Source: Candidatus Omnitrophota bacterium
Lineage (GTDB): Bacteria; Omnitrophota; Gorgyraeia; JAFGIU01
Assembly (NCBI GenBank): GCA_016929445.1
Contig: JAFGIU010000011.1
Location: 43,068-107,067 of the forward strand
Length of the DNA stretch: 64,000 nucleotides
Reading direction: 5' to 3'
Shown here: positions 1-41,000 of the stretch, in pieces
Layout of the letters: the number at the start of each line of letters is the position of its first letter
How positions within the stretch are numbered: the stretch's first letter is position 1
Notes under the pieces: model-generated
Told to the model about the DNA's origin: nothing
The model's input: only the letters and a program-made list of their open reading frames with translations
The model's database searches: none
Translations under genes and position numbers: made by a program

Positions 1-3000
1 AGCGGGAAGGTACGCGCCCCATCGGATACTTATCAAACTCAGAGGAGATTTTCCGTCTGCGTTGGAGTATCAGGCATCGCAGCCGGTTCCTCTTTGTAAC
101 TTAGCTCCGGGCAGCCGTCTGGCCGAATTGTATCAAAAGTTTGGAGTAGAAAAGACGGAACCCCTTTTCCGTCCCTCGATGAAAGATGTCTCTGCTTCGA
201 TGGCCCCTCAGTATGCGGAAGAATACCTCACACGGCAGGTGATGCTGAAGTTCCCTAAACGTGCAGAGCGGGTTCCGGAAGGGGTCGCCGCTCTTTCCAC
301 ATACCACGTGTATTGCTTGGAATTGCGGGAGGATGTGAAAGTAATGGAAGCTGTGAAGGCTTTTGCCTCGGATCCTCTGGTGGAATACGCCCAGCCGGAC
401 TACCAGGTGGAACTGGAATGGCTGCCAAAGGATGAGTATTTTTACACCAGTAACTCCTGGGGTCAAGACTATCCGGATTTGTGGGGATTAAAGGCAAACC
501 AGATGAACATGGAAGATGCTTGGGATATTACCCTGGGCAAGGGCACGGTCGTGGCGGTTGTGGACACGGGATTGGATTATACTCACCCGGATATTGCTGA
601 AAGCCTTTGGATAAATGAAGACGAGGTGCCCGCCAACGGAATAGACGACGATGGTAACGGATTTGTCGATGATATTCGTGGGTGGGATTTTGCAGGACGC
701 ACGTATGATGCTCCTCCGGACAACGATGTTATGGATTTCAATGGACATGGCACACACGTTTCGGGGACTATTGCGGCGCAAGCCAATGATGAAGGTGTTA
801 TCGGGGTGGCTCCCGAAGCCAAAATTATGCCGCTTAAGGGGTTTTGTGATAATGGCTCAGGGTACATTTCCATGTTGGCGGAGGCCATGGCGTATGCGGC
901 GGATAACGGAGCCGATGTCATGAATTGCAGCTGGAGTGGTCCTTCCTATAATATTCATGATTTTGTTGCGGAAAGTGCAGTGAATTATGCGATGACAAGG
1001 GGTTGTGTGGTGGTTTTTGCCGCTGCCAATGACTATGGTGCGGATGCGGGATTCATCAGCCCTCAAAATATGAGCTATCCGGACGCAAAACCCATTGTTG
1101 TATCAGCGAGTACTCCTTTCGACACACCGGCTGTTTTTACCAACGGAGGTTACGTAGTGGATGTCTGTGCTCCGGGTGGGGGAGAGCCCGACCTCCCCGG
1201 TGTCCACACATCTGTGTATAACATTTTGAGTTTGAAGGCTCGATACTTCAACCACTACTATGCAGAGTGGGTGGTGAATGAGAACCTGATACGGCTGGCA
1301 GGCACCTCCATGGCCGCACCGCATGTCAGCGGTTTGGCGGCGCTTGTTCTTGCGAAGAATCCGGATTTGAATGTGGATCAGGTTCGGCAGACGATTCGAG
1401 CCGGCGCACGGGACATCTTTCAGGAGGGTCAGGATTTTCTAACGGGTGTGGGGTGTGTTAATGCCCCGGCCACGCTCGATTGCCCTTTGCCTCCGGAGTG
1501 TTGCATCCATAGTCCATTTGCCGACGGTTCGGTGACACCCGTTGGAGAGTTGAGGATTACCGGAACGGCTTCAGGACCAGGATTTGAGGTTTACCTACTG
1601 AGGGTGGCTTCCTTGGACTCTGCAACACATGATTGGACCTATTTGGCTGAGAGTGTTTTGCCTGTGCAAAACGGTTTGTTGGGTGTGTGGAATGTTGGAG
1701 GGTTGCCTATTGGCTCGTATGGATTGGAACTCACTGTGAAGGGGGCTAAAGATAAGTCATACACGGAATTCAAACGAGTTATTGTGGAGCCTTCTTTTGA
1801 AGTGATTCCCTTTCCGGCAGCTATGTACTCTGTTTTTGGCAACTCCATGGCTGTTGTGCATGGAGCTCCGGTGGGCCATTACAGCGGATACAACGGTTTT
1901 GAGATCAGTCTTGTGGATCTGAGCACGAAACAGAAGCAGGTTCTGCAAAGGACGACCAACTATATAAACGGACTTGCGTATGCGGGTAACGCATTATTCT
2001 ATTTAGAAGAAAGCCGGGGGCTTGTGAAGCGAGATATGGAGGATGGCCGGGAAGAGCTGTTAATGCGATGCCATAGTCTAGCCCGAGACCTGGTCTATTC
2101 GGATGGACGATTAGCGTTCGTTGACGTAGAAAATTCTCAAAACCCAGGCGAGGTTTTTGTTTATTACGTGACACTTTTGGATCTTGCCACAGGCGCAATG
2201 ACCCGTTTGCAGCCCAATCCCACTATGGAATACGCGCGGCTGGCGATCTCAGACAAGTATCTTGTCTGGAATGCATTTGATTTTGACGCGCGAAGACATC
2301 GGCTGTGGCTGTATTCTCTGGAGACTCAGCAGGGGCGGTGGCTCCTTGAAAATGAGGAGCACCAAGCCTATGCCGCGATGGATGGAGACAAAATAGCTTT
2401 CAAAGGGTATGTGAAAAACGTCAACGAGGGTTCATCTCATGCCCATCAATTTCTTGCAGGTGAGTCACGCATCTGTTTGCTGGATATCGAATCAGGGAAT
2501 ATTGAGGATTTGACGGATGAGAAGTCCGAAACACACCCTCCGGCCATTGGCGATGGTTGGGTTGTATGGGAGGTGGTCTGCAGCGGGATGAATTCGGATC
2601 TCTATGGTTTCAATATGAAATCAGGCAAGACAGAAAGGCTGACTGCTTATCCTCTGCCGCAGTTTTGGGCGAATATCAATGGTGGCAGGTTATTTTACTC
2701 GGATATTCGTGCAGGTTTGTTTTGTGACACAGGGTATTACGTGCATTACCAGATATTATCCGGGATGGATCTGTCTATCGGGACCCTTGCTCTGCTCGAT
2801 CCCCGGACAAATGAGTCTCTTGAAGCGGGAGACATTTGGGAGGGGGATGCGGCCAGGGCAGAAGCAACCGTGACCTGGATTGGCGAGAATGATTCAGGCC
2901 CTTTTCAGTGCCGTTGGGATTGGAATGATGAGGGAGATACTCCCGGACCGGCGTTTTCGAGAGTCGTAAATGTTGACAATATGGCACCCGGAGACGAACA

Positions 3001-5302
3001 AACCTTTGAGTTTTTAAGGGACTGCCTCGGCGCGGGAGAACATACCGTGAGTTTTGAGGTAGACATTGCTCAGGTGGTCTCGGATCCAGATCAAACCAAC
3101 AATAAGAGGGAACGAAGGTTTGTGGTTCGGAAGAAGCTTTCGGATTTGGTTCCGGAAAAAATTGAATTTTATGCACAGGAATCAGGGTTACAGGTTTTGC
3201 CCATGCCCGGGCAACCCCTTTTCTTGCGCGTGCCTGTCCTCAATAAAGGGGCAGGTAATAGTGGGGAATTCAAAATGGAATGGGCCCTTACGGGTCAGTC
3301 CTCCAGCTGGGCGAAGATAACGGCATATCCCAACTTGGCGAGTGGAGAAATCTCCACCGGAGAGCAGGCTCAGGTGAGCTGGATTCCTCAAGCGGGAGTG
3401 TACAAACTCAGCGTTCAAGCAGACAGCCAGAGGACGGTAGAAGAATCGGATGAAACAAACAATGAAAGACTGCTCTTTCTTGATATTTCGGACACGCCGC
3501 TAGTGGACTTGGCTGTAGAGGGGCTGCAGTACCTGGCCCCGCCAGGGGTAAGTCCGGGAGGACCCAAGCCTGGGGAAAGAGAGAGTTTTTTGGTGACGGT
3601 GCGCAATGCGGGAGCGCAGTTGGTGAAGTCAGTATCCCTCTCATGGTTTTTTGATGACCGGCTTGTTGGTGTGGCTGAAGCACAGTTGCTGTTTCCGGGT
3701 GGCGTGACCCAGCTTGTTGTTGAGGTCCGGATGCCCCTTGAAGGCGGTTTGCATCAACTGAAAGCACATCTGGATCCGGAGAACAGAGTGATCGAGGGTT
3801 ACGAGAGCAACAACGTTGCTGTGTTGAACATGGATTTGCCGGTGCCGAACCAGCGGCCTCATGCGGTAGCGTTGTTGACGCCGCTCAGAGGCGATGCGCC
3901 TCTGAGTGTGCGCTTTGATGCCTCGCAGAGTACGGATCCGGAAGGTGAAAAACTGCGTTATTGGTGGAGCTTCGGGGATGAAGCCGATAGCCCTTACAGC
4001 GAGTCGATTTCTGGACTCCACACCTTTATGGAGGAAGGATTTCATGCGGTGACCTTGATGGTGACGGATCCCGGTGGGTTGAGTTCCAAACAAACGCAGA
4101 CAATTAAGGTGAGTCCTCCGGCCGCGCCGTTTTTGTGGAGATTCGATCAGGATGGCGACATGGAAGGGTGGAGCACGTATCGAATGCTGGACGTTCGGGT
4201 TCAAGAGGGATCATTGCAGGGTGCATCCAGACACACGTGGGCTCACACCTACAGCCTGTCGAATCTGGGACTTCCGGCAGCCGAGTACGGCAACTTGTTT
4301 CTGAGATATGAGGTGGGGTCCACGCGCAGCAAGGCGACCCTGAAATTGCGCTGGATCACGGAATCCGACACCGTGTGGAACGATGCGAAGCAGGTATATT
4401 TTGAATACACTCCCGGAACCTGGCAGGACGTGCGGATTGATCTCTCAAATCACGCGGAGTGGAAAGGGACAATCCGGCAGTTCCGAATCTACCCCATTAT
4501 CCAGGTGGAGCCAGGAGAACAGATTAGCTTTTCCATCGACAAGATCCAATTTATGCGCACGGGCGAGGAAGATTTGGTTGAGGAGGGAGTTTTTGTGGCG
4601 GGGCCTTTGCAGGGTACCGGCAAGATTCTGCAGTTTGAAGTGGGAGACACTCATACGTGGGGCGCAGATTTCCTCAACAAAACTGCTCATTATCAGCGGG
4701 TGGCCGTAAGCCTTTTTGTGAAAGACGGAGGGGCGGCCTTGATCGACTACAGAATCCACACCAGCAACTGGGTTTCGGTGGGGCCCTGGAAGACAGTGCG
4801 TGCTGAAATCCAGCACACCTTCCTCGGGAAAGCCGGGTACTCAGATGTGATTCTGATTGCTCAAGTGCAGCACTTCAGTAGCCCCGGAGGCTGCGACATC
4901 ATTGCTGAGAGTCTGCCGATGCAGATCGAGGTCACAGACCCGTATGGAGCGGGTACTGTGACCGCAGAAGGTTTTGAGGGTGGTTGGAATTGGAATTTGA
5001 AGGTGGGCGAAAGCGCCCGGTGGGCAGCGAAGTTCAAAAATACCACCAGTGGCGTCAAGTATGTGGCGGCGAGCCTGTTTTATCCTAACGGCCAGGCGGT
5101 GGTGATGGACTCTAAGATGCACACGAGCTACTGGGTGGAGATCCGGCCGCAGCAGACGGTGACGGCGGAGTTTCGTCACACATTCGCGAGCCCGGGTGTT
5201 TATGAGAATGTGATTCTCAAAGCCCAGATCCAAGATTCCAGTGTGGACTCCGGATGGAGAACAATTGGCGAGACGGCGCCGTTCAGAATCGAGGTCGAAT
5301 GA
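1..5302 (+). CDS. Subtilisin-like serine protease (peptidase S8), 5'-partial at the window edge. Domain order: I9-like propeptide, S8 catalytic domain, beta-propeller-like region, CARDB-like repeats, PKD domain, a roughly 150-aa domain shared with the 6364..7665 protein, and two tandem C-terminal ~115-aa repeats.
   Basis: The frame is open from nt 2 with no stop, so the true start lies upstream of the window; the first in-window start candidate is TTG at 62. The catalytic triad motifs are all present: VVAVVDTGLD (Asp), DFNGHGTHVSGTIAA (His), GTSMAAPHVSGLAALVL (Ser). The I9-like propeptide reads AFASDPLVEYAQPDY. The PKD-like segment reads SVRFDASQSTDPEGEKLRYWWSFGD...HAVTLMVTD. The two C-terminal repeats begin HTSNWVSVGPWKTVRAEIQHTF and HTSYWVEIRPQQTVTAEFRHTF. 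Confidence 0.85.
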   Translation, partial: AGRYAPHRILIKLRGDFPSALEYQASQPVPLCNLAPGSRLAELYQKFGVEKTEPLFRPSMKDVSASMAPQYAEEYLTRQVMLKFPKRAERVPEGVAALSTYHVYCLELREDVKVMEAVKAFASDPLVEYAQPDYQVELEWLPKDEYFYTSNSWGQDYPDLWGLKANQMNMEDAWDITLGKGTVVAVVDTGLDYTHPDIAESLWINEDEVPANGIDDDGNGFVDDIRGWDFAGRTYDAPPDNDVMDFNGHGTHVSGTIAAQANDEGVIGVAPEAKIMPLKGFCDNGSGYISMLAEAMAYAADNGADVMNCSWSGPSYNIHDFVAESAVNYAMTRGCVVVFAAANDYGADAGFISPQNMSYPDAKPIVVSASTPFDTPAVFTNGGYVVDVCAPGGGEPDLPGVHTSVYNILSLKARYFNHYYAEWVVNENLIRLAGTSMAAPHVSGLAALVLAKNPDLNVDQVRQTIRAGARDIFQEGQDFLTGVGCVNAPATLDCPLPPECCIHSPFADGSVTPVGELRITGTASGPGFEVYLLRVASLDSATHDWTYLAESVLPVQNGLLGVWNVGGLPIGSYGLELTVKGAKDKSYTEFKRVIVEPSFEVIPFPAAMYSVFGNSMAVVHGAPVGHYSGYNGFEISLVDLSTKQKQVLQRTTNYINGLAYAGNALFYLEESRGLVKRDMEDGREELLMRCHSLARDLVYSDGRLAFVDVENSQNPGEVFVYYVTLLDLATGAMTRLQPNPTMEYARLAISDKYLVWNAFDFDARRHRLWLYSLETQQGRWLLENEEHQAYAAMDGDKIAFKGYVKNVNEGSSHAHQFLAGESRICLLDIESGNIEDLTDEKSETHPPAIGDGWVVWEVVCSGMNSDLYGFNMKSGKTERLTAYPLPQFWANINGGRLFYSDIRAGLFCDTGYYVHYQILSGMDLSIGTLALLDPRTNESLEAGDIWEGDAARAEATVTWIGENDSGPFQCRWDWNDEGDTPGPAFSRVVNVDNMAPGDEQTFEFLRDCLGAGEHTVSFEVDIAQVVSDPDQTNNKRERRFVVRKKLSDLVPEKIEFYAQESGLQVLPMPGQPLFLRVPVLNKGAGNSGEFKMEWALTGQSSSWAKITAYPNLASGEISTGEQAQVSWIPQAGVYKLSVQADSQRTVEESDETNNERLLFLDISDTPLVDLAVEGLQYLAPPGVSPGGPKPGERESFLVTVRNAGAQLVKSVSLSWFFDDRLVGVAEAQLLFPGGVTQLVVEVRMPLEGGLHQLKAHLDPENRVIEGYESNNVAVLNMDLPVPNQRPHAVALLTPLRGDAPLSVRFDASQSTDPEGEKLRYWWSFGDEADSPYSESISGLHTFMEEGFHAVTLMVTDPGGLSSKQTQTIKVSPPAAPFLWRFDQDGDMEGWSTYRMLDVRVQEGSLQGASRHTWAHTYSLSNLGLPAAEYGNLFLRYEVGSTRSKATLKLRWITESDTVWNDAKQVYFEYTPGTWQDVRIDLSNHAEWKGTIRQFRIYPIIQVEPGEQISFSIDKIQFMRTGEEDLVEEGVFVAGPLQGTGKILQFEVGDTHTWGADFLNKTAHYQRVAVSLFVKDGGAALIDYRIHTSNWVSVGPWKTVRAEIQHTFLGKAGYSDVILIAQVQHFSSPGGCDIIAESLPMQIEVTDPYGAGTVTAEGFEGGWNWNLKVGESARWAAKFKNTTSGVKYVAASLFYPNGQAVVMDSKMHTSYWVEIRPQQTVTAEFRHTFASPGVYENVILKAQIQDSSVDSGWRTIGETAPFRIEVE

Positions 5303-5364
5303 GGGCTGTGCCATTCGCGAAACCGGAGGAATTCTTCCTTGCCTTATTCCAGGCGAGAGCCGGC

Positions 5365-5721
5365 TCAAAAAGTAATAACCTTGTCGCTGTCAATAACCCA
5401 CTCCGCCAATTCAGGCATTGTAGATTTTACCGCCCCATCAAAATACGGATGGTTCTTGTAGATGCCGCATCTTGCCATGCAAGTTCCACAGACCTTGACA
5501 GCAACACCCTTGGCAATAAGGTCTTTAAGCATTTGGGACAAGTCTTGGTCGTAGCCTTCAGGCGGCTTGCAAACATCGCGGGCCATATCAACCGAGTCGT
5601 TCATCAGAAACAATCTGACCTCATGTCCTGATTCGGTCAACTTGGCGGCCAAACGCAGACCGTTCCAGGTCACATCGGTGTTGTCGTAGGGCTCACGGTT
5701 AAAGATTACCAGCACTTTCAT
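5365..5721 (-). CDS. DsrE/DsrF-like (sulfur-relay-like) family protein
   Basis: 118 aa. Fold-like pattern MKVLVIFNREPYDNTDVTWNGLRLA...KVCGTCMARCGI, typical of DsrE/TusD-like small proteins. Assignment is by recalled family resemblance only. Confidence 0.55.
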   Translation of the reverse strand: MKVLVIFNREPYDNTDVTWNGLRLAAKLTESGHEVRLFLMNDSVDMARDVCKPPEGYDQDLSQMLKDLIAKGVAVKVCGTCMARCGIYKNHPYFDGAVKSTMPELAEWVIDSDKVITF

Positions 5722-5771
5722 TCGTTTGTCTCCTTTCCTGGGCGGCTTGAGGCTAATCCTTGCTTTTAAGT

Positions 5772-6146
5772 CTATTTCAACGCTTCTTCCACGGCGCGGA
5801 GAACACCCGGAACGCCGGCTGATTTCGGGATTGCCGGACTTGTTCCCACAAGATCCCCCAGGCCGGTTTCTTCTCCCTCTTGTGCCATATCGGTGACAAA
5901 GATAATACGAACGTCCCTCAAATCCTCTTCGGCTCTCAGATGTCTGGCAATGCTGCCGCCGTCTTCATAGGGCATCAAATAGTCAATCAAAATGAGATCC
6001 GGTTTGAAAGCAAGCGCAGCAGGCAAGGCTTGTGTCGCTTCATTCACCGCCTGTACTGCATACTTGCCTGTGGCTTCCAGGGCAGCGCCGACAGCCTCTG
6101 TGATCCCGGGGGAGTCATCGACCAACAGAATTTTCTTTTTGTCCAA
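5772..6146 (-). CDS. Single-domain response regulator (CheY-like receiver)
   Basis: KILLVDDSPGITEAV...PDLILIDYLMPYEDGG...IIFVTD. Carries the receiver Asp pocket and the conserved Lys region. No output domain. Confidence 0.8.
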   Translation of the reverse strand: MDKKKILLVDDSPGITEAVGAALEATGKYAVQAVNEATQALPAALAFKPDLILIDYLMPYEDGGSIARHLRAEEDLRDVRIIFVTDMAQEGEETGLGDLVGTSPAIPKSAGVPGVLRAVEEALK

Positions 6147-6363
6147 GCCTCAAGCTCCTGGCGTTCAAAAACCCAACGGAGTCCTATCCCGTTTATTCGC
6201 AGTATTCTAGCACGGTCTTTAACCACTTGCCGGGGATACTGGATTCTCTTCGAAAACCTGCGATATGATCTATGTCAGGTTGCTAAGTCCGCAATGGGCG
6301 TGTAATAGGGGCTCGCTGAATTGCTGATGTGATATGCAGGATCTGGCAGGAGGAGAGTTAATT

Positions 6364-7665
6364 ATGCATACATCTTCGAGGTTTCTGGTAATGCTGATTG
6401 CTTTTTGCTCGCTCAGTTTAAGTGCGAGTGTGGAGTCTGCCATGGGCTATGAATGGGTTAAGGAGAGTGGAATCAGAGTGATACATGACCTGTCCAAGTA
6501 TCAGCAGGCATCTCCTTCAGTAGTCCGGTTGGGCAATGGGTCGTACAGGATGTACTACTCTGAAGCTCCCCTGCGAGGACTCATGTATGTGGTGAGTGCG
6601 GTGTCCAGCGACGGGTTGCACTGGACAAAAGAACCCGGCATAAGGGTGGGGGGAGAGACTGCCGTTGCAACATATCCGGATGTGGTGACATTAGCCGATG
6701 GGTCTTACCGGATGTACTTTCACAGAAACAGAGTTGGAGGCGGACACCAAATCTACAGTGCGGTTTCTGATGAGGGCTTGTACTGGACTGAGGAGGGTAT
6801 TTTGCTTGTGGACTATGGGGCCATTCCGGACGTAGTCCAACTGCCGGATGGAAACTACAGAATGTATTTTTACTCCCAGTCACAAGAAGCTCTTCTGAGT
6901 GCAATATCCCCCAATGGGCTGGACTGGACCGTGGAGGCCGGTACCCGGTTAACGGTTTTGGACGGTGCCTACACATGCGATGTACACATTGAGGCGGACG
7001 GACGTTTTCGTATGTACCTCGGATCCAGGGGCGGCACAGATACGATTGGCTTTATCAGTAGTGCCGTATCCCAAGACGGGCTGAACTGGGAGTTGGAGCG
7101 GGATTTGAAAATCGACAATGGCGCAATGCCTGAGGTCCTGAGAATGCCCGATGGTCTCTTACGCATGTACTACATTCGCAATAACTGGGACATTGCCAGC
7201 GCGGTTGCTTTGGGCACCGGAGGCCCCCAACCCGCAGGAGTCGCGTGGGAGTTTAATACCGAGGGAGATGCGGAAGGATGGGCTCCCATTCGCGGACTTG
7301 GTTCGGTGCAGGTCAGCGGAGGTTTTTTGCGGGCTGTTGTCACGGACACCAACCCGCATTTGCGCACCGGGGCCGGGAGCCAGCTTGACGCAAGCGAGTA
7401 TCAGACTTTGCGCCTGGGTTACACGTTGACGAGTTCCGATTCACAGGCTCAATTTATGTGGGGTCCGGAGGGAGTGATGCCCGGAAGCGGCGGACGATGG
7501 ATCAGTTTTGATGTGATTGCAGACGGGGTTTCACGGGAGGCGGTGGTCGATCTGAGCCGGAATCCTGCCTGGACCGGAATTGCCGACCGTTTTCGCCTGG
7601 ATCCTCTGCACCGGCCTGAAATCGGGGATTCCGTCGCGATTGACTATATCCGGATCGAAGAATAA
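6364..7665 (+). CDS. Secreted BNR/Asp-box repeat beta-propeller protein (sialidase/glycoside-hydrolase-like) with a C-terminal ~150-aa domain shared with the S8 protease
   Basis: RBS AGGAGG 10 nt upstream of ATG 6364. Signal peptide MHTSSRFLVMLIAFCSLSLSASVESA. Four Asp-box motifs: SSDGLHW, SDEGLYW, SPNGLDW, SQDGLNW. Five blade-like repeats ending DGSYRMYF / DGNYRMYF / DGRFRMY / DGLLRMYY. The C-terminal WEFNTEGDAEGW...IDYIRIEE segment is homologous to the protease segment WRFDQDGDMEGW...IDKIQFMR. Confidence 0.65.
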   Translation: MHTSSRFLVMLIAFCSLSLSASVESAMGYEWVKESGIRVIHDLSKYQQASPSVVRLGNGSYRMYYSEAPLRGLMYVVSAVSSDGLHWTKEPGIRVGGETAVATYPDVVTLADGSYRMYFHRNRVGGGHQIYSAVSDEGLYWTEEGILLVDYGAIPDVVQLPDGNYRMYFYSQSQEALLSAISPNGLDWTVEAGTRLTVLDGAYTCDVHIEADGRFRMYLGSRGGTDTIGFISSAVSQDGLNWELERDLKIDNGAMPEVLRMPDGLLRMYYIRNNWDIASAVALGTGGPQPAGVAWEFNTEGDAEGWAPIRGLGSVQVSGGFLRAVVTDTNPHLRTGAGSQLDASEYQTLRLGYTLTSSDSQAQFMWGPEGVMPGSGGRWISFDVIADGVSREAVVDLSRNPAWTGIADRFRLDPLHRPEIGDSVAIDYIRIEE

Positions 7666-9012: not shown

Positions 9013-9846
9013 ATGCGAACAACGACACCACGATACATTATTGTTCTCGTGTGCTTTCTGTGCGCATCTTGCGCTACGGTGCCCTTAACGGGCAGAAGGC
9101 AACTGGCTTTGATTTCGAATCAAAGCCTGCTTTCCATGAGTTACCGGCAATACGATGAATTTCTGAAGGCCAATAAGCTCAGCGGGGATCAGACTCAAAC
9201 ACAGCGGGTCAAGTCCGTGGGACAGAGGATACAACAGGCTGTTGAAAGATATATGGCGGCCAACAATTTGGCGGATGAATTGAGAGACTACGAATGGGAA
9301 TTTAATCTGGTGGAGAATGAGGAAGCCAATGCATGGTGCATGCCGGGCGGGAAGGTGATGGTCTATACGGGGATCTTGCCGGTTACCAAAGATGAGGACG
9401 GATTGGCTGTGGTGATGGCCCATGAGATCGCCCATGCGATTGCCCGTCACGGAGACGAGAGAATGAGCCAGGGATTGCTGACGGAACTCGGAGGGGTGGC
9501 TCTCTCTTCCGCTTTAGAGAAGCAGACGGAAAAGACCAAAAAGATTTGGATGACAGCCTTTGGAGTGGGGACGCAGTTCGGGGTTCTATTGCCGTATAGC
9601 CGGCTCCAGGAAAACGAAGCGGACCGGTTGGGATTGATCTTCATGGCAATGGCCGGGTTTGATCCGCATGCGGCAGTGGCCTTCTGGGAAAGAATGTTGC
9701 AGAAAAAGGACGGACAGCCGGATATTGAGTTCCTGAGCACCCACCCCTCCGGCCAAACACGCATTCAAAATATCAAGGCCGCAATTCCCGAAGCAATGCA
9801 ATATCGAACTCAGGCTCCACCTATGGGTGGTTTTAGCGCTCAGTGA
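9013..9846 (+). CDS. M48-family zinc metallopeptidase lipoprotein (Ste24/HtpX/LoiP-like)
   Basis: Lipobox LCASC in MRTTTPRYIIVLVCFLCASCAT. HExxH motif in VVMAHEIAHAIARHG. Downstream Glu ligand region NEADRLGL. Confidence 0.8.
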   Translation: MRTTTPRYIIVLVCFLCASCATVPLTGRRQLALISNQSLLSMSYRQYDEFLKANKLSGDQTQTQRVKSVGQRIQQAVERYMAANNLADELRDYEWEFNLVENEEANAWCMPGGKVMVYTGILPVTKDEDGLAVVMAHEIAHAIARHGDERMSQGLLTELGGVALSSALEKQTEKTKKIWMTAFGVGTQFGVLLPYSRLQENEADRLGLIFMAMAGFDPHAAVAFWERMLQKKDGQPDIEFLSTHPSGQTRIQNIKAAIPEAMQYRTQAPPMGGFSAQ

Positions 9847-10047: not shown

Positions 10048-11352
10048 ATGATGAAAAGCTTCCGGATATTCCTAGCCGGCCTTATGGCCGTCAGTCTTAC
10101 TGCTTGTGCTTCCTCCAGTGCCAATCGCGTCCGGATCAGCGAAGGCCATGTGCCCACGCAATTTGCCGACGATGACGCGCGCTACCGCGAAGAATCCCTG
10201 CGCATGGTCCAGGAGCTCCAAACCCAAGGCGCGGTGTGGGACGACCCATGGTTCCAAGACGAGGGCGTTTCTTTGATCCGGCAGATAGTGCCTGAGGACT
10301 TGCAAGGCAAGCACCAGGGGATCCAGTTCCGATTGGTGAAAGCTCCCTCCGTGAACGCCTTTACTGTGTATTCGGGTGATATCTTTTTTCACACCGGACT
10401 GATTTCGCGCCTGACCCACCCGGATCAATTGGCTTTTGTGGCTGCGCATGAGATATCCCACTGGGAGAACCGGGATGTCTTGTATTTCATGAGGAGTTAC
10501 AGGAGCAAGACCGTGGCGGCGCAGATCCTGGATTTGGCTTTGGTGCCTGTGGATGCGCTGGTGACCGGCGGTTTGAGCAATTTGACCCTGAACCTGGTTT
10601 ATGGGGCTTCGGTCACGGGCTACGGCCGCGAGCAGGAATCCCGCTCCGACCAGGAGGCGCTGCTGGCGTTGGAAGACGCCGGCTATGATTTGTCGCGTTC
10701 CACAGAGACTTTCCACATTTTCATGCAAGAGCATGAAAAATACGACCAGGGCCGCCAGTCGGCGAGCTTTTTGTTAAGCCATCCTTCCAACGAGAGGCGC
10801 GTCCAGGACATCACCGCGCAGCTCGCAGAGCAGGGGATAGAGCCATCGGAGGCAATTTCCTTTGATGAGAGCTTTGTGCGGGACACGCGGCATATCCGTT
10901 TGGAAAACGCGGCTCTCAATATTGGACAGGGCCGCTCCTTTCACGCCTTGGACGATCTGCAGGTCCTCTTCCGCATCAATCCCAAAGATCCCCAGGCGCT
11001 GTATCAGCGCGGTGAGGCTTATCGCGTGGCGGCCAACAACTTTAAACGGGCCAAGGGGGAGCTGTCCAAGAAGCATTGGAAGGAGTTGTTCGAGGGCCGC
11101 GCGGAAGAAGAAATTGTGAACGAATGGCGCCGGTCGGCAAGGGCCGCCTTTGAGGAGTCCATTGACGGAGCACCTTTTTATGCAGAGCCGCACAAAGGTC
11201 TGGGCCTGCTCCTGGCGGACCAGGCATCGGGCGAACCCGAGGCACGGCTGGCCAAAGAAGAGCTTCAGAAATATTTGGACATGATGCCTGATGCGCGGGA
11301 CCGCCGCTTTGTGGCCAGCAGGATCAGAACCCTGGAGGAGACGGATGAATAA
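10048..11352 (+). CDS. M48-family metallopeptidase lipoprotein with C-terminal TPR-like helical region (BepA-like architecture)
   Basis: Lipobox LTACASS in MMKSFRIFLAGLMAVSLTACASS. HExxH in FVAAHEISHWENRD. The C-terminal ~150 aa are helical and TPR-like (ALYQRGEAYRVAANNFKRA...). Confidence 0.75.
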   Translation: MMKSFRIFLAGLMAVSLTACASSSANRVRISEGHVPTQFADDDARYREESLRMVQELQTQGAVWDDPWFQDEGVSLIRQIVPEDLQGKHQGIQFRLVKAPSVNAFTVYSGDIFFHTGLISRLTHPDQLAFVAAHEISHWENRDVLYFMRSYRSKTVAAQILDLALVPVDALVTGGLSNLTLNLVYGASVTGYGREQESRSDQEALLALEDAGYDLSRSTETFHIFMQEHEKYDQGRQSASFLLSHPSNERRVQDITAQLAEQGIEPSEAISFDESFVRDTRHIRLENAALNIGQGRSFHALDDLQVLFRINPKDPQALYQRGEAYRVAANNFKRAKGELSKKHWKELFEGRAEEEIVNEWRRSARAAFEESIDGAPFYAEPHKGLGLLLADQASGEPEARLAKEELQKYLDMMPDARDRRFVASRIRTLEETDE

Positions 11353-14427: not shown

Positions 14428-15744
14428 ATGAAAGATGCACATGTCCTCGTAATTCATTCGGGCTCTTCAAAAAAACGCTTTATCCTGGAAACTGCCCAGA
14501 TGCGGGGCATTCGAGTCACGCTTCTGAACCCCCAACAGAATTGGGCTTCTGAAATCGTTCACAAACTCCATGTTTGCCGTCCGCGAACGGTTCGGGGTTT
14601 GGAGGACCGTGTCCGCAGCATTCATGCGAAAGACCCGGTGGATGGTGTGCTCACCTTTTGGGAAGAAGACGTCCCCACTGTGGCTCTATGTGCCCAGAGG
14701 CTGGGGCTGCGCGGCCTAAGTCCGGATTCGGCTTGGGCCAGCCGGAGCAAATTGGTCATGCGCCGGCGTATGGCCCAGATGGGGCTGCCTGTGCCCGCCT
14801 TTCAAGAAGTTGAAACCTGGGAAGACGCGGCCCAATTTGTGCGCGAACACGGCGCTCCGGCCGTTCTCAAGCCCGAGTTCGGCGCGGACAGCGAATGTGT
14901 GGTGAAAGTCGAAGACGAGTCCCAAGCACAGTGGGTTTTTGACTCTGTTCTGGGCCGGGCCAGAATCCAGAGTGCGGTATACCCCTACCAAAGACAGAAA
15001 TTCCTGATCGAATCGTATATTGCCGGTCCTGAAGTCAGCGTAGAGGGAGTTGTGCAAGGCGGGACGCCGGTCTTCTACGCAGTGATCGACAAGTCGCCGA
15101 TGACGGAGCCGTTTTTCATTGAAAGAGGAGAGGTCACTCCTTCACGTTTGCCAAAGACGGCACAGGCTGGAATTCTCGAGATGGTGGGATCGGCCGTGCG
15201 CGCGCTGGGATTGCGGGATTGCGGTCTGCATGCGGAAGTCAAACTGTCGGCCCAGGGTCCGCAAATTGTGGAGATCGGCGCGCGGATGGGCGGAGACTGT
15301 ATTCACGGGTTGGTTAAAGCAGTTTACGGGGTGGATCTTGTGGAGGAAAACTTCAAGGTCTGTCTAGGGGCAATAGCCACTCCCACCCAGCCGGCCCGTT
15401 GTGTCGCGGTTTCCGAGACTCTTGTGCCTGAGCAAAGCGGAAGGGTTGTCTCCGTGCCGGACCTGAACCAGTGGTCCGGACATGACGAACTGATCGAAGT
15501 GGTTCTCACCGCAAAGTCCAAGAGTATGGTCAGAATTCCTCCTTTGGGGTACGACAACCTTGCGTGGGTAAGTGTCAAGGGCCGCAGCTACCGCGAAGCC
15601 AATCAGGCATTGTCGCGCTGGGTTCAAGTTCTTCAAGAGTCGATTCAAATTGAAACGGTTCACCGGCAGCGGGTTTGCGCCCAGCACAAAGCGAAACACC
15701 TGCCGCACTCAACCGTGCCTACGCTGGCTCATGCTGCCTGCTGA
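14428..15744 (+). CDS. ATP-grasp enzyme, L-amino-acid-ligase-like (paralog 1 of 3)
   Basis: 438 aa. N-terminal pre-ATP-grasp domain, central A-domain (PAVLKPEFGADSECVVKVEDE), ESYIAGPEVSVEGVV, and C-terminal RMGGD loop. The layout matches Lal/BacD/PGM1-like ligases. Confidence 0.7.
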   Translation: MKDAHVLVIHSGSSKKRFILETAQMRGIRVTLLNPQQNWASEIVHKLHVCRPRTVRGLEDRVRSIHAKDPVDGVLTFWEEDVPTVALCAQRLGLRGLSPDSAWASRSKLVMRRRMAQMGLPVPAFQEVETWEDAAQFVREHGAPAVLKPEFGADSECVVKVEDESQAQWVFDSVLGRARIQSAVYPYQRQKFLIESYIAGPEVSVEGVVQGGTPVFYAVIDKSPMTEPFFIERGEVTPSRLPKTAQAGILEMVGSAVRALGLRDCGLHAEVKLSAQGPQIVEIGARMGGDCIHGLVKAVYGVDLVEENFKVCLGAIATPTQPARCVAVSETLVPEQSGRVVSVPDLNQWSGHDELIEVVLTAKSKSMVRIPPLGYDNLAWVSVKGRSYREANQALSRWVQVLQESIQIETVHRQRVCAQHKAKHLPHSTVPTLAHAAC

Positions 15745-17095
15745 TCCGGCTTCGGTGCATCTGTTGGTGGTGCACACCCACGCAGATCCGCGCAGCTACC
15801 TGCCCGCGCTTCAAGCCCAAGGGTATCGGTTCACCCTGCTCAAGAAAAATCCTTCCAAGGAGGATTGGGAGTGCTTTGACCGGGTTATCCGGATAGACTT
15901 CCAGGATTCCTGGGAGGAGGTCTTGAGTCAAGCCGGGAAGCTGCACAGCCAGGATCCGCTTTCCGGGACTCTAAGCTTTTCGGAAAGCGGCGTGCTGGTG
16001 GCAAGTCTCCTGGCAGCGGCTCTCGGTCTGGGGGGAAATGACCCTCATGCGGTCTTGTGCACCCGGAACAAGTACTTGATGCGAAAGACTCTTGAGAGCG
16101 CCGGACTGCGAATGCCCCCCTACCGATTGGTTTCTTCCGCCAAAGCGATATTCGAGGCCTTGCGCGGGCACGGCCAACCCATGGTGCTTAAGCCCATCAG
16201 CGGGTCCTCCAGCTATGGAGTGGTGCGGCTCAATCCGGATATCACGCTTCAAGAGGCCACGGAAGTATGGGAGGAAGTCAGTTCCTATATTCGGACTTAT
16301 CCTGCTAAGTATGCGGAATACCCGTATGAATTTTGGCTGCCCCCCCGCCTGGAGGGTTTGCTCGAATGGGAGGCCATGGATCCGGCAGAGCATCTCATGC
16401 TTGAGGGCTTTGTGGAGGGTGCCCAGGTGAGTGTGGACGGATTTGTGGTGGACCAGGACGTAAAGATTTTCGCAGTGGTGGATGTGGAAAGACAAGCCCA
16501 CGAGAAATGGTTTTTGGAATACCAGGAGTGGACGCCCAGCCGTCTGCCCCGGCCGGTTCAAGATCAAATTCTCCAATGCGTCGAGAATACAGTGCGCAGC
16601 TTGGGTTTGACCCGGTCCATGTTTCATTGCGAGCTCAAGGTGGATTCTCAAGGACCTGTGGTTCTTGAAATTGCGGGCAGGCAAGGGGCCGACAATATTT
16701 CGCGGTTCATTTCGCATACGTGCGGCATCAATCCGTACTTAATCGGGGCGGAGCTGGCTCAAGGACTGAAACCCCAAAATCAGATCAGGCCCCGGGGCGC
16801 CATGAAAATGCGGTATTTCCTGCCCGAACAGACAGGGGTGCTGCGCGGCATTAGCGGACAGAAAAAAGTCTCGGAACACCCCAATGTGGACGAGTTGTAT
16901 TTTGAATTCAATACCGGAGAAAAAATCCAAAGTCCTCCGGAGAGCTATGAGTTTTTGGGATATATTTCCGTGAAGGGGGATTCGGCCGAACAGGTGGACC
17001 GGGTTTTGGACGAGTTGTACCCCCAAATTCAGTTTCAGGTCGAAGCCGAAGAGCCTGTCGAGGCCCTCAGCAATTCAAGAACAATCAACCCATGA
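15731..17095 (+). CDS. ATP-grasp enzyme, L-amino-acid-ligase-like (paralog 2 of 3)
   Basis: ATG 15731 overlaps the upstream gene by 14 nt. Same layout as paralog 1: PMVLKPISGSSSYGVVRLNPD, EGFVEGAQVSVDGFVV, IAGRQGAD. Confidence 0.7.
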   Translation: MLPADPASVHLLVVHTHADPRSYLPALQAQGYRFTLLKKNPSKEDWECFDRVIRIDFQDSWEEVLSQAGKLHSQDPLSGTLSFSESGVLVASLLAAALGLGGNDPHAVLCTRNKYLMRKTLESAGLRMPPYRLVSSAKAIFEALRGHGQPMVLKPISGSSSYGVVRLNPDITLQEATEVWEEVSSYIRTYPAKYAEYPYEFWLPPRLEGLLEWEAMDPAEHLMLEGFVEGAQVSVDGFVVDQDVKIFAVVDVERQAHEKWFLEYQEWTPSRLPRPVQDQILQCVENTVRSLGLTRSMFHCELKVDSQGPVVLEIAGRQGADNISRFISHTCGINPYLIGAELAQGLKPQNQIRPRGAMKMRYFLPEQTGVLRGISGQKKVSEHPNVDELYFEFNTGEKIQSPPESYEFLGYISVKGDSAEQVDRVLDELYPQIQFQVEAEEPVEALSNSRTINP

Positions 17096-18408
17096 AGCCG
17101 TTTTCGTCTGTCCGGGGGCCTGTTCTAGTTGTTCATCCCAGCCGGGACTATTTTGAAAGAGTGCTGCAAGTGGCCCCGAATGCCGTTGCTTTGGCCGGTC
17201 CCTCCCGGGCGGAGTCTTTGCCCGCTGCTTCCGTGATCCCCGCGGATCTGGAAGACGCAGACCGCTGCCTGCGTTTGATTCAAGCGTGGGAGGCGCAAAA
17301 CGGCGTCCGGATCGCGGGCATTGTGACCTTTCTGTGCGATCATCTGGCGCTTACCTCGGAATTGGCCCGGGTTCTCAAGCTTCCTTTCCACGACCAATCG
17401 ACCATTCATCGATCCCGCTATAAGCACCAGACCAAAACCTGTTGGCAGGAAGCCGGAATTTCCACGCCCCGGGGGGTGGAGGTGCGTTCCTCAAAGGAAA
17501 TGGAAACCGTATTGAGCTGTCTTCCCGCAGGCCCCTGGCTATTAAAGCCTGTTTCCGCATCGGGAAGCGAATGGGTGCGCCTTGCCTGGGAACCCGCGGA
17601 ACTGGAAGAGCAAATAGCGGCCGTTGCCGCGGGCCTGGCCCATAAAGCCCGGGATGCCGGTGATCCTGCAGGCCTGATTCTGGTGGAGGAGTATATCCGG
17701 GGCGAAGAAGGAAGCATGGACCTCTTCATTCACGGATCCACTGCAAAAATCATGCGGCTTAACCGCAAATGGATGCAGGAGCGCAAGGAGACTGCCGGAA
17801 CCGTTCTGGGTTATTGCGCTTCGAGATGGACTCCCGCTGAAGAAGAAGAACTCAGGCAGCAGGCCGCAAAGGCGCTGCAGGCCTTGGGAGTCCGAAGAGG
17901 TTTGTGCATGCTGGACTTTATTGATTCCGGAGCCAAGGATGGCCGGACTCCGGACCGGTTTTGCTTTCTGGAAGCCGGCTTGCGTCCCGGAGGAGATTGC
18001 CTGCCCGAATGGTCCCGGTATGCCGGGGGATATGACCCGGTCCGGGCCGCAGTCCTGGTGAGCCTGGGGTGTCCGGTAGAGCTGGAGCCTGTTTCCACAA
18101 GGCACAACCGGGAGATCGTGGCTTTTCATCTGATGGCGCCGCATGCCGGCGAATTAACGCAGGCCCGCTGGGAGAGCCTTCTCGATCATCCGGCGGTTCT
18201 TTCGGTGGAACCCTATTTTTCTCAAGGGGATGTGTTGCGGACCGAAAGCGGGGGATATCAGGACTTGCTTTTAGGCGCGGTCGTGGCCCGGCTCGAACCC
18301 GGAATGTCTCTTCGGAAGTTTTACAGGCAGCTCTATGAAGCGGGGGAATTTGCCATTGTCTCTTCGCGGACTTTCCCGCTTGCCCATGCCCAAAGGAGCG
18401 CGGTATGA
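17092..18408 (+). CDS. ATP-grasp enzyme, L-amino-acid-ligase-like (paralog 3 of 3)
   Basis: ATGA overlap with the upstream gene. PWLLKPVSASGSEWVRLAWEP, LVEEYIRGEEGSMDLF, GLRPGGDC. Confidence 0.65.
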   Translation: MKPFSSVRGPVLVVHPSRDYFERVLQVAPNAVALAGPSRAESLPAASVIPADLEDADRCLRLIQAWEAQNGVRIAGIVTFLCDHLALTSELARVLKLPFHDQSTIHRSRYKHQTKTCWQEAGISTPRGVEVRSSKEMETVLSCLPAGPWLLKPVSASGSEWVRLAWEPAELEEQIAAVAAGLAHKARDAGDPAGLILVEEYIRGEEGSMDLFIHGSTAKIMRLNRKWMQERKETAGTVLGYCASRWTPAEEEELRQQAAKALQALGVRRGLCMLDFIDSGAKDGRTPDRFCFLEAGLRPGGDCLPEWSRYAGGYDPVRAAVLVSLGCPVELEPVSTRHNREIVAFHLMAPHAGELTQARWESLLDHPAVLSVEPYFSQGDVLRTESGGYQDLLLGAVVARLEPGMSLRKFYRQLYEAGEFAIVSSRTFPLAHAQRSAV

Positions 18409-19790
18409 GTCGTGTCAAGGACAGTCTTGTCCGGGGGGATTTGGGGGCACAGGTACGAGCGTTGAGTCCGCGGCATCCGGCTTGGCTCGAGATTGCACGG
18501 CGTTACGGAACGCCCTTGTACCTTGTGGAGGAAGAAATACTGCGGACGCGGGCCCGGAAATTTGTGGCCGCGTTTTCTACCGCGCTCGAAGGAGCAAAAG
18601 TCCATTATGCGCTTAAGGCCAATCCTTTTCCCGCGATTGCCCGGTGTTTTGTGGAAGAAGGCCTGGGATTGGATGCCTCGAGCGGCCTGGAGCTGGAGCT
18701 GGCTCTGCGTCTGGGATGCAGCCGTATTTTGCTCAGCGGCCCCGGAAAAACCGATCCGGAACTCGAACTGGCGCTGGCCCATCCCGGGAGAGTGACGGTT
18801 TTAGCCGATAGCGTGAGAGAATTGGAGCGCATCCACAGCCTGAGCAAAGCAAAGGGCCGGAGCTCCCGCGTGGGGCTTCGCATTTCCACCACTTCACAGG
18901 GACAGTGGAATAAGTTCGGTGTGGCCCTGGAAACGCTGCCCGGAATAATGGCCTTGGCCAGGGACCGTTGGCCGGATGTCCGGATCCGGGGCCTTCAGTT
19001 TCATCAGAGCTGGGTCCGGGATGCCCAAGCGCACACGCACACGCTCAAACAGGTGGGGGCGGTTTTGAGAGACCTGCCTGCGCAGGATCGGGAATCGCTG
19101 GAATTCTTGGACATGGGGGGAGGGTATTATCCCGCGAATGAAGAGGGGATTTATCCCTGGCTTGCGGATGCGCAGGATCTGGTGTTGCCTTCGGCGTTTC
19201 CGGATTTTGACCAATGGTGGGGCCAGGGCCAGCCCTTCTATTTTTTCCGCCCGTGCCTGCCCATTGAGGAAATGGCCTCACGCCTCGGACAGGTATTCAA
19301 AGAGGAAATTAGCTCCCAAGTCCCCCTGGAGCCTTGGCTGGAGCCCGGGCGCTGGTTGGTTAACGGTGCGGTACAAATTTTGCTTCAGGTGCGGGACTGC
19401 AAGACTGAGCAAGCCGTAATTGCGGATGCCGGAACCCATTTGCTAGGGTGGGAGCGACTTGAAATGGAATACGCGCCCTTGGTGAACCTGAGCCGTCCTG
19501 GAGAGGATCAGCAGCGCTGCACTGTGTACGGCTCGCTCTGTACGCCTCATGATGTGTGGGGATACTCCTACTACGGGACCGGAATTCAAGAGGGGGATAT
19601 TCTTGCATTGCTGTACCAGGGTGCGTATGTGCAGACCTTGCAGCAAAGATTCATCAAACCCGTGGCCGCAGCGGCGATGCTCTGTTCAGACGGTTCTTAT
19701 GAGTTGCTCAGCAGCCGGGAATCTTTTGAAGACAGATTCGCCGGACTGGGTGCGCCTGCCGCCCTTGACCCTCCGATCTGCCAAGCGTAA
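18405..19790 (+). CDS. PLP-dependent decarboxylase, Orn/Lys/Arg/DAP decarboxylase family (fold III, alanine-racemase-like N-domain)
   Basis: ATGA overlap with the upstream gene. PLP-Lys motif VHYALKANPFPAIARCFVEEGLGLDASSGLELELAL. C-terminal beta-domain with the GxYxxxL-type region GAYVQTLQQRFIKP. Confidence 0.75.
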   Translation: MSRVKDSLVRGDLGAQVRALSPRHPAWLEIARRYGTPLYLVEEEILRTRARKFVAAFSTALEGAKVHYALKANPFPAIARCFVEEGLGLDASSGLELELALRLGCSRILLSGPGKTDPELELALAHPGRVTVLADSVRELERIHSLSKAKGRSSRVGLRISTTSQGQWNKFGVALETLPGIMALARDRWPDVRIRGLQFHQSWVRDAQAHTHTLKQVGAVLRDLPAQDRESLEFLDMGGGYYPANEEGIYPWLADAQDLVLPSAFPDFDQWWGQGQPFYFFRPCLPIEEMASRLGQVFKEEISSQVPLEPWLEPGRWLVNGAVQILLQVRDCKTEQAVIADAGTHLLGWERLEMEYAPLVNLSRPGEDQQRCTVYGSLCTPHDVWGYSYYGTGIQEGDILALLYQGAYVQTLQQRFIKPVAAAAMLCSDGSYELLSSRESFEDRFAGLGAPAALDPPICQA

Positions 19791-37788: not shown

Positions 37789-38013
37789 GTCTCGAGCTGG
37801 ATACGAGGAGTGGGGTACTTTTGTAAAGTTCTGTCAGGCAATAAGTTGCGTATGATTTCTATCAGAGTCAACATTTTTGTTTTGGGAGAAAATATAAGAC
37901 TTTATCCAAAGGGATATTTTTCAATCCAACCGGAATACTTTGTGGGGATTTTGGAGCGGTTGTATTGCCGGTGACACCTTAATTGACGACTGTTGTTCCG
38001 GGAGGACATTCCG

Positions 38014-41000
38014 ATGCAATTCCACGCGCCTTGCAGGCCGCTCGCCTATTTTCTCTCCATCGTGTTGTGTCTCAATACTTCTCCTGTCCAAGCCGGACAA
38101 ATCATTCCAGACAGAAATACGGCCACTTCCTTAGAGACAGAAGGAAGAGTGACCGATGTCCGGACATCCACGATCCAAGGAGAGAACGCATTCAACTCTT
38201 TCCGCAAGTTTGACGTGTACCAAGACAACGTGGTCAACCTGCATCTTCCTGACGGGACTTCCAATCTTCTCAACCTGGTGCATTCCTATGCCACGCATAT
38301 TGACGGCGCTCTCAACTCCATCCAAGACGGTGCAATCGGTGGGAACGTGTTCTTTGCCAACCCGCATGGGATGGTGGTGGGAGAAACCGGGTCCATCAAT
38401 GTTGGTGCTTTAACAGCGATGACGCCCACGCCCCAATATATGCGGGACTTTTTTGATTCCCCGGGTAATCCCTCGGCAGCCGCAGTCAGCAGCCTGCTCA
38501 ACAGTACGGTCCCAATCAATGAAAATGCCTTAATTTCAGTGCAAGGTCAAATCCATGCAATCGGCGATATTGCGCTGCACGCCGGGAAGATCGCGAATAC
38601 GGGACTGATCCAATCCGCGGTCAACATGAGAGATATTCCCGAGGCGCCTGCACTTGCTATCCGGAACGGGGAAATCATCCTCTCAGCAGAGCAGGATGTG
38701 GTGAATGCCGGGATCATCCGGTCGGAGGGCGCAAATGAGGTGGACGGCGGCAAGATCCATATTCGCGCGGGCCGGGACATAAAGCTGGAGGATGCTTCCG
38801 CAGTTTCGGCAAGAGGCCGCGGCGGGAATTCAGACGGGGGGGAGGTCATCATCCTGGCTGACCGGGATGCAGAAATCCTCGGCACGGCACTTGTGGACGT
38901 GAGTGGCGGAGAGATCTCGGGGGATGGGGGCTTTGCCGAGTTCAGCGCTGAGGAGGTGGTCAATCTCAACGGGGGCATATTCCAGGCCGGGGCAACGGAT
39001 GGCGAAGGCGGCAATTTTTTGATTGATCCGGACATCCTCAATATCAACCAAATGCTTCTCAATAGTTCAGACGCCACGTACTTCAGCGGCGGGAACGGTT
39101 ATTTTGAGGCGGACGAGGTGATTAACATTGGCGCCAACACGACGATCTCCAGCCGGCAGATCGAGTGGATGAATCTCCGCAGCCGCCATTTGAGCGACCC
39201 GTCGATTGGGGATTCGGGCAATCTGACCTTTGCCGCGCCCGTGATCAATGTGGGCCGCGGGGCAAGAATTCTGGCCCATGTTTTGGAAGGGGACACCGAA
39301 CACGCTGCCGGCGATATTGCGTTTCTGGCCACGGACACGGATCGCCTTGGATTTGAGAAGAATGCTTACGCGGGCATCAGCATGGAGGACGCGGTTCTCA
39401 AGGGCAAAAATGTTGTTATATCAGCGCTGGCAGATACCTCCTTGCTCCCGGACATGCCGGATGACTCCCCATTGTCCTCTCCTGAAGCGATCGTGGACGC
39501 CATCTTTGATTTCACAGGAGATGCGGTGGTGACTCTCTCCGATGCCACGGCCCTGGTGGCCCTTTCCGGGGACACTCAAGTGGAGGCCAGCGGGAACGTG
39601 GCCATCAAGGCGGAAGCCATTTCGCGGGCCAACCCGCTGATGCCGGGCTATTTGCTGGGCTTTGCCTGGGGCGAATCGCATGCCACTGCCGAAGCCCTGC
39701 TGCAAGACGAGGTTGAAGTCAAGGCCGGCAATGCGGTGGAGTTAAGCGCGGCCACTGAGAATATGGTGAAGGTGACGGCGCGTTCTCATGCCAAAAACAA
39801 ACCCGTGGATGTCACTTTTGTGAAAGCCGAAACCACTGCCGAGACCACGGCGTCCATCGCCGAAGGAGTGACGGTGGAGGCCGGTTTGGGAGGAGTGAAG
39901 GTGGTGGCGACCACGATGAATGATGTGACTGCTACAGCCGAGGCAGTTGAAGTGGGGGCGAGCTCGGCCGGCATTGCCGTGGCGGTTAATGAACTCACCA
40001 CCCATACCAATGCCTTGGTGGCGGGACAGGTGTTTTCCGAAGGAAATATTGAAATCCGCGCGGATGCCGAAACTAAAAATAACCTGACCGAGGCTCACGC
40101 ATCCTCGCTCGGCGATACGGAATCCATCGGCACGCAGTTGAACAATGTCATTAGCGGTGCCAAGAACAAGGTTGCCTCTAAAGTTATCGGTAAGCGAGGG
40201 GCTGATTTCTTCTTTCCCGGCATCAAATCAGGCAAACTCAACTTTGCCGGATCGGTCGCCTATTGTGACAGTACCAACAACGCCAATGCCTCTATTCAGG
40301 GGACCCCTTCCGATCCTGCCCAGGTGGAAGCCCGGGGGAACCTTCTTCTCCAAGCAGCGATTGAAGACAATATGAATATCCACTCTACAGCCAAGACCAG
40401 CTCCGACAAGGTGGCTTTGGGCGGGGCCGTGGTCTTCGGGGGCTATGAAAACAATGCGAATGCGTTTATCGGCCCGGACTCCAAAGTGAATGTGCGGGGG
40501 TTGTTGGCTCTGGATGCCCAGACTGAGGTGCCGTATCCCTGGGAGGTGGATTTCAGCTCTTTTGATGAAGTGATCGAGCATCTTGCGGGGGGTCTGGAAA
40601 ATCTTTTGCTGACTTCTTATGCATTCAATTCCAGTAAAGGGAAGGAATACAGCCTGGCAGGGGCAGTCAATCTCTTTGACTTGGACAACACCTCCAATGC
40701 CTATATTGATGCAGGGGCTTTGGTCAATTCCGACCCCGGCTATGCCGGTAGCGAACAAGCGGTTTCCCTCTATGCGCATAACGACATCAATAGCCTGAAT
40801 TTGGTGGGAATGTGGTCCAGCAAAGTTTTGTTTGGGAGCACGCCCAAAGCGGCTTTGGGAGGATCGTACAATCAGCTCAATACCACCGCCTCAGCCAATG
40901 CCTATATCAATGAAGACGCCGAAGTGAGCGCGAGCGGGGATATTGTCGTGGGCGCAGACTCTCAGCAGAATACGGTTACCGTCACCATGGCCGGGGGAAC

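Follow-up and report, generated by a model that had tools for sequence, protein, structure and literature searches.

A widespread bacterial module resembling carbohydrate-binding modules is shared by an S8 protease and a propeller protein of an Omnitrophota genome

The closest known counterparts of the protein module described here are the beta-sandwich carbohydrate-binding modules (CBMs), among them CBM4/CBM22, CBM11, CBM27, CBM28, CBM29, CBM86, the CBM of an alkaline mannanase (1wky) and the laminarin-binding CBM X584. They also include a 'carbohydrate-binding domain' in roseophage vB_DshS-R4C, which spans residues 482-629 of its megatron baseplate protein (PDB 8gtc_M), and the similar inserts of phage tail proteins of the pb4 and tip-attachment-protein-J types. 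The Lys-gingipain of Porphyromonas gingivalis likewise carries jelly-roll modules, the cleaved-adhesin domains K1-K3, after a secreted protease domain, and offers a model for the use of such a module on an S8 protease. Here we analyzed a 64,000-nucleotide stretch of a Candidatus Omnitrophota genome (the window; assembly GCA_016929445.1, contig JAFGIU010000011.1, positions 43,068 to 107,067), in which one module of about 145 residues occurs both in an S8 (subtilisin-family) serine protease and in a secreted beta-propeller protein.

Both window copies lie on the plus strand, one inside the protease and one at the end of the propeller protein (Table 1). BLASTP with compositional matrix adjustment joined them in a single alignment 147 columns long (29% identical, 48% positive, 4 positions gapped) at E=7e-13, far below the threshold of 0.01 that a first-pass annotation, made from the sequence alone, had set for a composition-corrected comparison. 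The Smith-Waterman score of copy against copy was 152, while 2,000 shuffles gave 29.1 +/- 4.8 with a maximum of 56 (z=25.7). An independent profile was built from 51 module copies of other organisms, leaving out the window and all other sequences of the same metagenome-assembled genome (MAG); it recognized the propeller-protein copy at 135.4 bits (E=1e-34) and the protease copy at 104.9 bits (E=3e-25), with E-values scaled to 1.8 billion sequences. Because the BLASTP E-value, the shuffle z-score and the independent profile scores agree, the homology is real, and the two segments are copies of one mobile module. A chance or compositional similarity, with no genuine common domain behind it, has the low identity as its sole point in favor and is refuted by these three measures and by the 2,375 members of the family described below. 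The first-pass annotation had proposed that segments at about 4110-4570 and 7210-7665 are related over their full length; the alignment does run from end to end, and the copies as delimited here fall within both segments. Its description of a terminal module fails for the protease, whose window copy lies inside the chain with 247 residues after it. A six-frame scan of the 64-kb window found no third copy, and none was found in the 247-residue protease tail or in a 4,530-residue open reading frame (ORF) further downstream, where copies were specifically looked for.

Structure prediction, which had been listed as a further check, returned a confident jelly-roll. With a 58-sequence alignment, AlphaFold2 modeled the propeller-protein copy as an 11-strand sandwich with a predicted local distance difference test (pLDDT) score of 96.5 and a predicted template-modeling (pTM) score of 0.90. 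On this model, the module is predicted to be a two-sheet beta-jelly-roll sandwich of about 145 residues with a galactose-binding-domain-like, or CBM-type, fold that superposes on members of this fold class; the model thus presents it, in the manner of CBMs, as a discrete and presumably non-catalytic beta-sandwich. A structural Ca2+ site between the Glu of the first strand and the Asp of the last, of the kind seen in CBM4/6/22/35, was considered but is not claimed. When the model was compared with the PDB using Foldseek, the top matches were CBMs (E=6e-6 to 1e-4), and in BFVD the best matches were inserts in phage tail proteins, with TMq up to 0.81.

The module belongs to a large and widespread bacterial family that has no model in Pfam or NCBIfam, the two libraries checked. 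When 1.84 billion representatives (clusters at 50% identity) were searched exhaustively with HMMER, 2,375 proteins were retrieved at E<=1e-3, of which 689 passed E<=1e-10 and 70 passed E<=1e-30. A word-indexed search returned 0 matches with a two-copy alignment and 1 protein with a 58-copy alignment, figures that reflect the sensitivity limit of that tool and not rarity of the family, and a scan of genome contigs with an alignment of four close copies as query gave 8 loci. At the phylum level the family spans Omnitrophota, Planctomycetota, Armatimonadota, Acidobacteriota, Sumerlaeota and Firmicutes, with carriers in, among others, Thermoguttaceae and Blastopirellula (both Planctomycetota), Blastocatellia, Sumerlaeia, Oscillospiraceae, Paenibacillus and Cohnella. 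The source annotations of the carriers name other domains only, or read 'hypothetical protein'. Neither window copy is matched by a Pfam or NCBIfam model, and no family of these libraries recurs consistently across 58 diverse copies; isolated sub-threshold Pfam matches, each in a single member, were to CBM9_2 (0.013), CBM_11 (0.013) and Mann_GBD_bact (0.019), and NCBIfam gave no such match. Membership in an existing CBM sequence family was considered as a candidate identity and set aside, no significant sequence match having been obtained to Pfam families or solved structures.

The family is defined by the signature W-[ED]-F...G-[DN]-x-E-G-W...G-x-L...T-G-x-D-P...W-x-G-x-I-x-x-L-R-x-D-P...I-D-Y-I-R. 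Its elements W-x-F, E-G-W, D-P, W-x-G and R-x-D-P lie outside the predicted strands and are 80-95% conserved across phyla, and the conserved I-D-Y-I motif falls within the last predicted strand. In the best 150 of the 2,375 proteins we counted 439 module copies, 1-8 per protein, with tandem arrays reaching 8 copies. These observations bear on the suggestion that the module is a ligand-free spacer or stalk, a rigid beta-sandwich that would extend large surface proteins in the manner of Ig-like, fn3 and CARDB repeats. The tandem arrays, the co-occurrence with fn3, PKD, CARDB and Big domains, and the divergence of copies within one genome (19-65% identity) are what such a role would lead one to expect, but motifs so strongly conserved outside the strands are unusual for a pure spacer, and lone C-terminal copies directly after catalytic domains occupy the classic position of a CBM. 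We therefore regard a purely structural role as quite unlikely.

The partner domains of the module were surveyed in 52 relatives. Modules that act on carbohydrates or belong to the cell surface prevail among them, and by Pfam name they include Beta_helix (5), WbsX (4), glycoside hydrolase (GH) family GH99 (3), GH5 (2) and CBM_4_9 (2), and further GH18, GH28, sulfatase, SASA esterase, CBM96 and fn3. Outside the Omnitrophota lineage, the commonest partner domains act on carbohydrates. Among six module-bearing ORFs from genome contigs of Planctomycetota and Armatimonadota, five contain a WbsX domain, and in four of these five the C-terminus is a module copy shortly after WbsX. The combination of WbsX (PF14307, GH99-like) with a C-terminal module is recurrent; some of these proteins have one or two N-terminal copies in addition, and one has a Laminin_G_3 domain. 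This architecture could be the ancestral or the most typical context of the family. A literature search combining the WbsX partner with CBM terms found no earlier description of the module. Judged from domain annotation, the relatives display the CBM trait of a contiguous module within carbohydrate-active enzymes, a trait that the window proteins appear to share only partly.

Collectively, the predicted fold and the partners lead us to favor, with moderate confidence, a non-catalytic glycan-binding or targeting module that this Omnitrophota genome would have recruited for its secreted proteases and propellers. Such a module would bind a glycan or a glycan-bearing surface and, once bound, would keep the catalytic or propeller domain linked to it in place on the substrate, by analogy with CBMs on glycoside hydrolases and with the role proposed for jelly-roll inserts in phage tail proteins. 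Here it would have been placed on large secreted S8 proteases and beta-propeller proteins, whose probable target would be polysaccharide-rich material such as the cell envelope or extracellular matrix. The 'CBM-like' guess of the first-pass annotation fits this picture, both in the predicted jelly-roll, whose best solved matches are CBMs, and in the mostly carbohydrate-active partners of the relatives.

Several points weigh against a glycan-binding role. The likeness to CBMs, as read from the model, lies at the level of fold only, with 6-19% identity in the structural alignments, and the module profile searched against PDB sequences linked to no solved CBM, its best match (E=0.11) being to a protein of another kind. 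Domains with the jelly-roll fold also act in protein-protein adhesion or as purely structural elements. Neither window carrier is a proven carbohydrate-active enzyme, one being an S8 protease and the other a propeller with a putative activity. Finally, the copies of the S8 protein have lost both of the most conserved acidic motifs (TGxDP and LRxDP), and their ligand may differ from that of the family.

The first-pass annotation had also called for a survey of other secreted proteins of the genome, and this revealed many further copies. Four of five additional JW937_ / MBN158xxxx proteins checked carry the module: MBN1587029, a second S8 protease with FG-GAP repeats, ends in three copies; three copies each are present in MBN1587052 and MBN1586600; and MBN1587797 has 3.2 copies together with Kelch-like repeats. 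Including the window proteins, the MAG encodes at least six such proteins with at least 15 full copies, whose mutual identity is 19-65%. The propeller-protein copy is nearest to those of the second protease (48-60% identity).

Within this MAG the module is combined with proteases, FG-GAP, Kelch-like and other propellers instead of classical glycoside hydrolases, which is one of the grounds for an alternative in which the module is a protein- or cell-surface adhesion domain that does not bind glycans, the sandwich docking the protease on a protein partner or a surface protein of the prey. This would be modeled on the cleaved-adhesin (hemagglutinin) domains that follow the gingipain protease domain and on the MAM domains of astacins. 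Foldseek also matched the module model in the PDB to ephrin-receptor ligand-binding domains and, lower in the ranking than the best CBMs, to an astacin MAM domain (7.6e-5) and to the K1 and K3 cleaved-adhesin domains of the gingipain Kgp (E=3e-4 to 5e-4). Omnitrophota have, moreover, been proposed to live as predators or parasites by means of large surface proteins (10.1101/2023.11.21.568195), a lifestyle with which docking on prey proteins would be compatible. We consider this adhesion role possible but on the whole improbable. A more far-reaching version of glycan binding, in which the module is a new CBM family whose Omnitrophota branch recognizes a cell-envelope glycan of the prey or host, these ultra-small, putatively predatory bacteria using the 15 or more copies to dock secreted S8 proteases and propellers there, strikes us as rather a long shot. 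If it were true, a 145-residue domain would provide a tractable handle on what Omnitrophota attach to.

The first-pass annotation had offered a second guess, that the module is a domain for secretion, sorting or cell-surface anchoring. All carriers examined do look secreted, and one window copy sits at a true C-terminus. Position and copy number effectively refute the idea, which we now hold to be very improbable: the copies of the protease are internal and N-terminal, and among the 439 copies counted above 305 are internal, 75 C-terminal and 59 N-terminal, many of them in tandem. Five of the 52 relatives additionally possess a genuine Por_Secre_tail of the type IX secretion system (T9SS), and for others the source annotation refers to an SLH domain. 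The C-termini of the two window carriers, ...GDSVAIDYIRIEE and ...GETAPFRIEVE, show no hydrophobic or charged tail and no LPXTG or PEP motif. Two specific identities were examined and rejected: a T9SS C-terminal sorting domain, there being no match of the Por_Secre_tail/TIGR04183 type and the protease copy being internal, and an LPXTG or PEP-CTERM signal, neither C-terminus having the motif or a hydrophobic tail.

Table 1. Features of the two module carriers and of the genes between them, in window coordinates.
Feature	Coordinates	Strand	Basis and remarks
S8 (subtilisin-family) serine protease gene	2..5302	+	ORF open from nt 2, left end outside the window; corresponds to aa 252-2017 of MBN1586045.1
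Peptidase_S8 catalytic domain	536..1453	+	Pfam PF00082, E=2.8e-53; aa 159-464
PKD domain	3848..4111	+	Pfam PKD_4, E=4.3e-16; aa 1263-1350; directly upstream of the module
Module copy of the protease, internal	4115..4558	+	aa 1352-1499 in the window ORF and 1623-1770 in the full-length protein
Protease tail (C-terminal) with two repeats of ~120 aa, unrelated to the module	4559..5299	+	Repeat alignment; no Pfam match, no module-profile match
DsrE-like gene	5365-5721	-	Between the carriers
Response regulator gene	5772-6146	-	Between the carriers
Secreted propeller-plus-module protein	6364..7665	+	MBN1586048.1, 'hypothetical protein JW937_01310', 433 aa, signal peptide
Five beta-propeller blades of ~50 aa	6493..7224	+	Motif scan: 5x [ND]GxxRMY, 4x S-x-[DEN]-G-L-x-W
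Module copy of the propeller protein, at its true C-terminus	7225..7662	+	aa 298-443; copy used for the structure model

The first carrier is assigned to peptidase family S8 (the subtilases) by its Pfam domain and by Asp/His/Ser triad motifs, VVDTG (nt 557), HGTHV (nt 746) and GTSMAAP (nt 1301). Read from nt 62, the window ORF is 100% identical over 1,746 residues to NCBI entry MBN1586045.1 (2,017 aa), and to the left of the window the full-length protein begins with a signal peptide, after which comes an additional copy of the module (aa 44-188). This N-terminal copy is 41-43% identical to the internal one. It sits between the signal peptide and a prodomain-like region (...ILIKLRGD...), for which Pfam gives a weak Fervidolysin_NPro-like match and nothing else; if the prodomain is cleaved as in other subtilases, the aa 44-188 copy would leave with it, an unusual arrangement. 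The catalytic domain is separated from the CARDB domains by some 400 residues (~1500-2760, plus strand; aa ~480-900) that are without a Pfam match, and their sole, faint match is to the beta-propeller repeat model TIGR04275 (E=9.5e-4). Three CARDB domains (Pfam CARDB, E=3e-30, 3 stretches) precede the PKD domain. The internal module copy departs from both DP motifs of the family, having RHTWA in place of TGxDP and FRIYP in place of LRxDP. The two repeats of the tail are clearly related to each other (Smith-Waterman score 206, against 27.5 +/- 4.9 for shuffles; z=36), and neither a Pfam family nor the module profile matched the tail. It has no relative among 150 proteins of the module family apart from the protease itself, so that the protein truly ends in another domain without a name.

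The second carrier has an alternative upstream ATG at 6334, which would yield a protein of 443 residues (ORF 6334-7665). Its earlier description as a BNR propeller stands with respect to the propeller repeats, but the BNR, or Asp-box, label does not: a regular-expression search of the protein found no canonical Asp-box (S-x-D-x-G-x-T-W), the repeats (S-x-D-G-x-x-W) being one residue shorter, and the query had no BNR match in Pfam, BNR_2 remaining under the cut-off in its homologues. The 167 propeller homologues bear the JGI name 'predicted GH43/DUF377 family glycosyl hydrolase', and Pfam gave partial matches to GH130 (E~1e-9 to 1e-10), GH32N and BNR_2, those to GH130 and GH32N covering one to three blades only. 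The sole GH-family match of the query itself is a weak one to GH32N (E=0.0094). The propeller thus resembles five-bladed propellers of the GH43/GH32/GH130 type rather than BNR propellers, and may be a putative hydrolase. The module was absent from all 119 homologues scanned, so that the fusion of propeller and module is specific to the window protein among the homologues listed.

The carriers are indeed about 1 kb apart, as the first-pass annotation had stated, but two minus-strand genes, DsrE-like and response regulator, separate them; because these intervene, the protease and propeller genes are separate transcription units. Elsewhere in the window, two adjacent plus-strand genes (9013-9846 and 10048-11352) encode M48-family metallopeptidases, both with lipoprotein-like N-termini and the second with a TPR-containing C-terminal extension. 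Four consecutive ORFs of similar size (438-507 aa) follow at 14428-19790 (+), the first resembling ATP-grasp and L-amino-acid ligases (ATP-grasp_4, 1.7e-23; LAL_C2, 2e-7), and the run possibly forms a small cluster for the ligation of peptides or metabolites. The 4,530-residue ORF (37993-51585, +) has a high content of Ala, Gly, Ser, Val and Asp and lacks Pfam matches at E<=1e-4; its N-terminal sequence resembles a two-partner-secretion (TPS) domain (...NAFNSFRKFDV...NLLNLV...FFANPHGMVVG...), and directly after it, at 51524-53116 (+), lies a gene for a TpsB transporter of the ShlB/FhaC type (POTRA_2 and ShlB, E=7e-32). The pair is probably a giant TpsA exoprotein with its own transporter.

Defining this family should improve the annotation of many secreted multidomain proteins and, if binding is shown, would add one more CBM family. 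The partner met most often here, the WbsX/GH99-like domain, is itself poorly characterized, and the way the module has expanded among proteases and propellers hints at how uncultured Omnitrophota may target their extracellular enzymes. No new mechanism is implied, since sandwich-type binding modules on secreted enzymes are a well-known design.

In comparison with known systems, the T9SS C-terminal domain (Por_Secre_tail), PEP-CTERM and LPXTG signals are, like the module, found on secreted multidomain proteins, and the T9SS domain is also a small beta-sandwich. However, none of these models matches the module, in keeping with the first-pass remark that it does not resemble them, and the module is not confined to the C-terminus and is often repeated. 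The Lys-gingipain domains are a weaker structural match than the CBMs and share no sequence similarity with the module; gingipains belong to the cysteine proteases, leave the cell through the T9SS and free their adhesin domains by autoproteolysis, whereas the S8 protein gives no sign of autoproteolytic release. The CBMs of glycoside hydrolases have no detectable sequence relationship to the module (6-16% identity when aligned by structure), and its carriers here are S8 proteases and propellers. The module is thus a new sequence family of a familiar kind, a CBM-like module on secreted enzymes.

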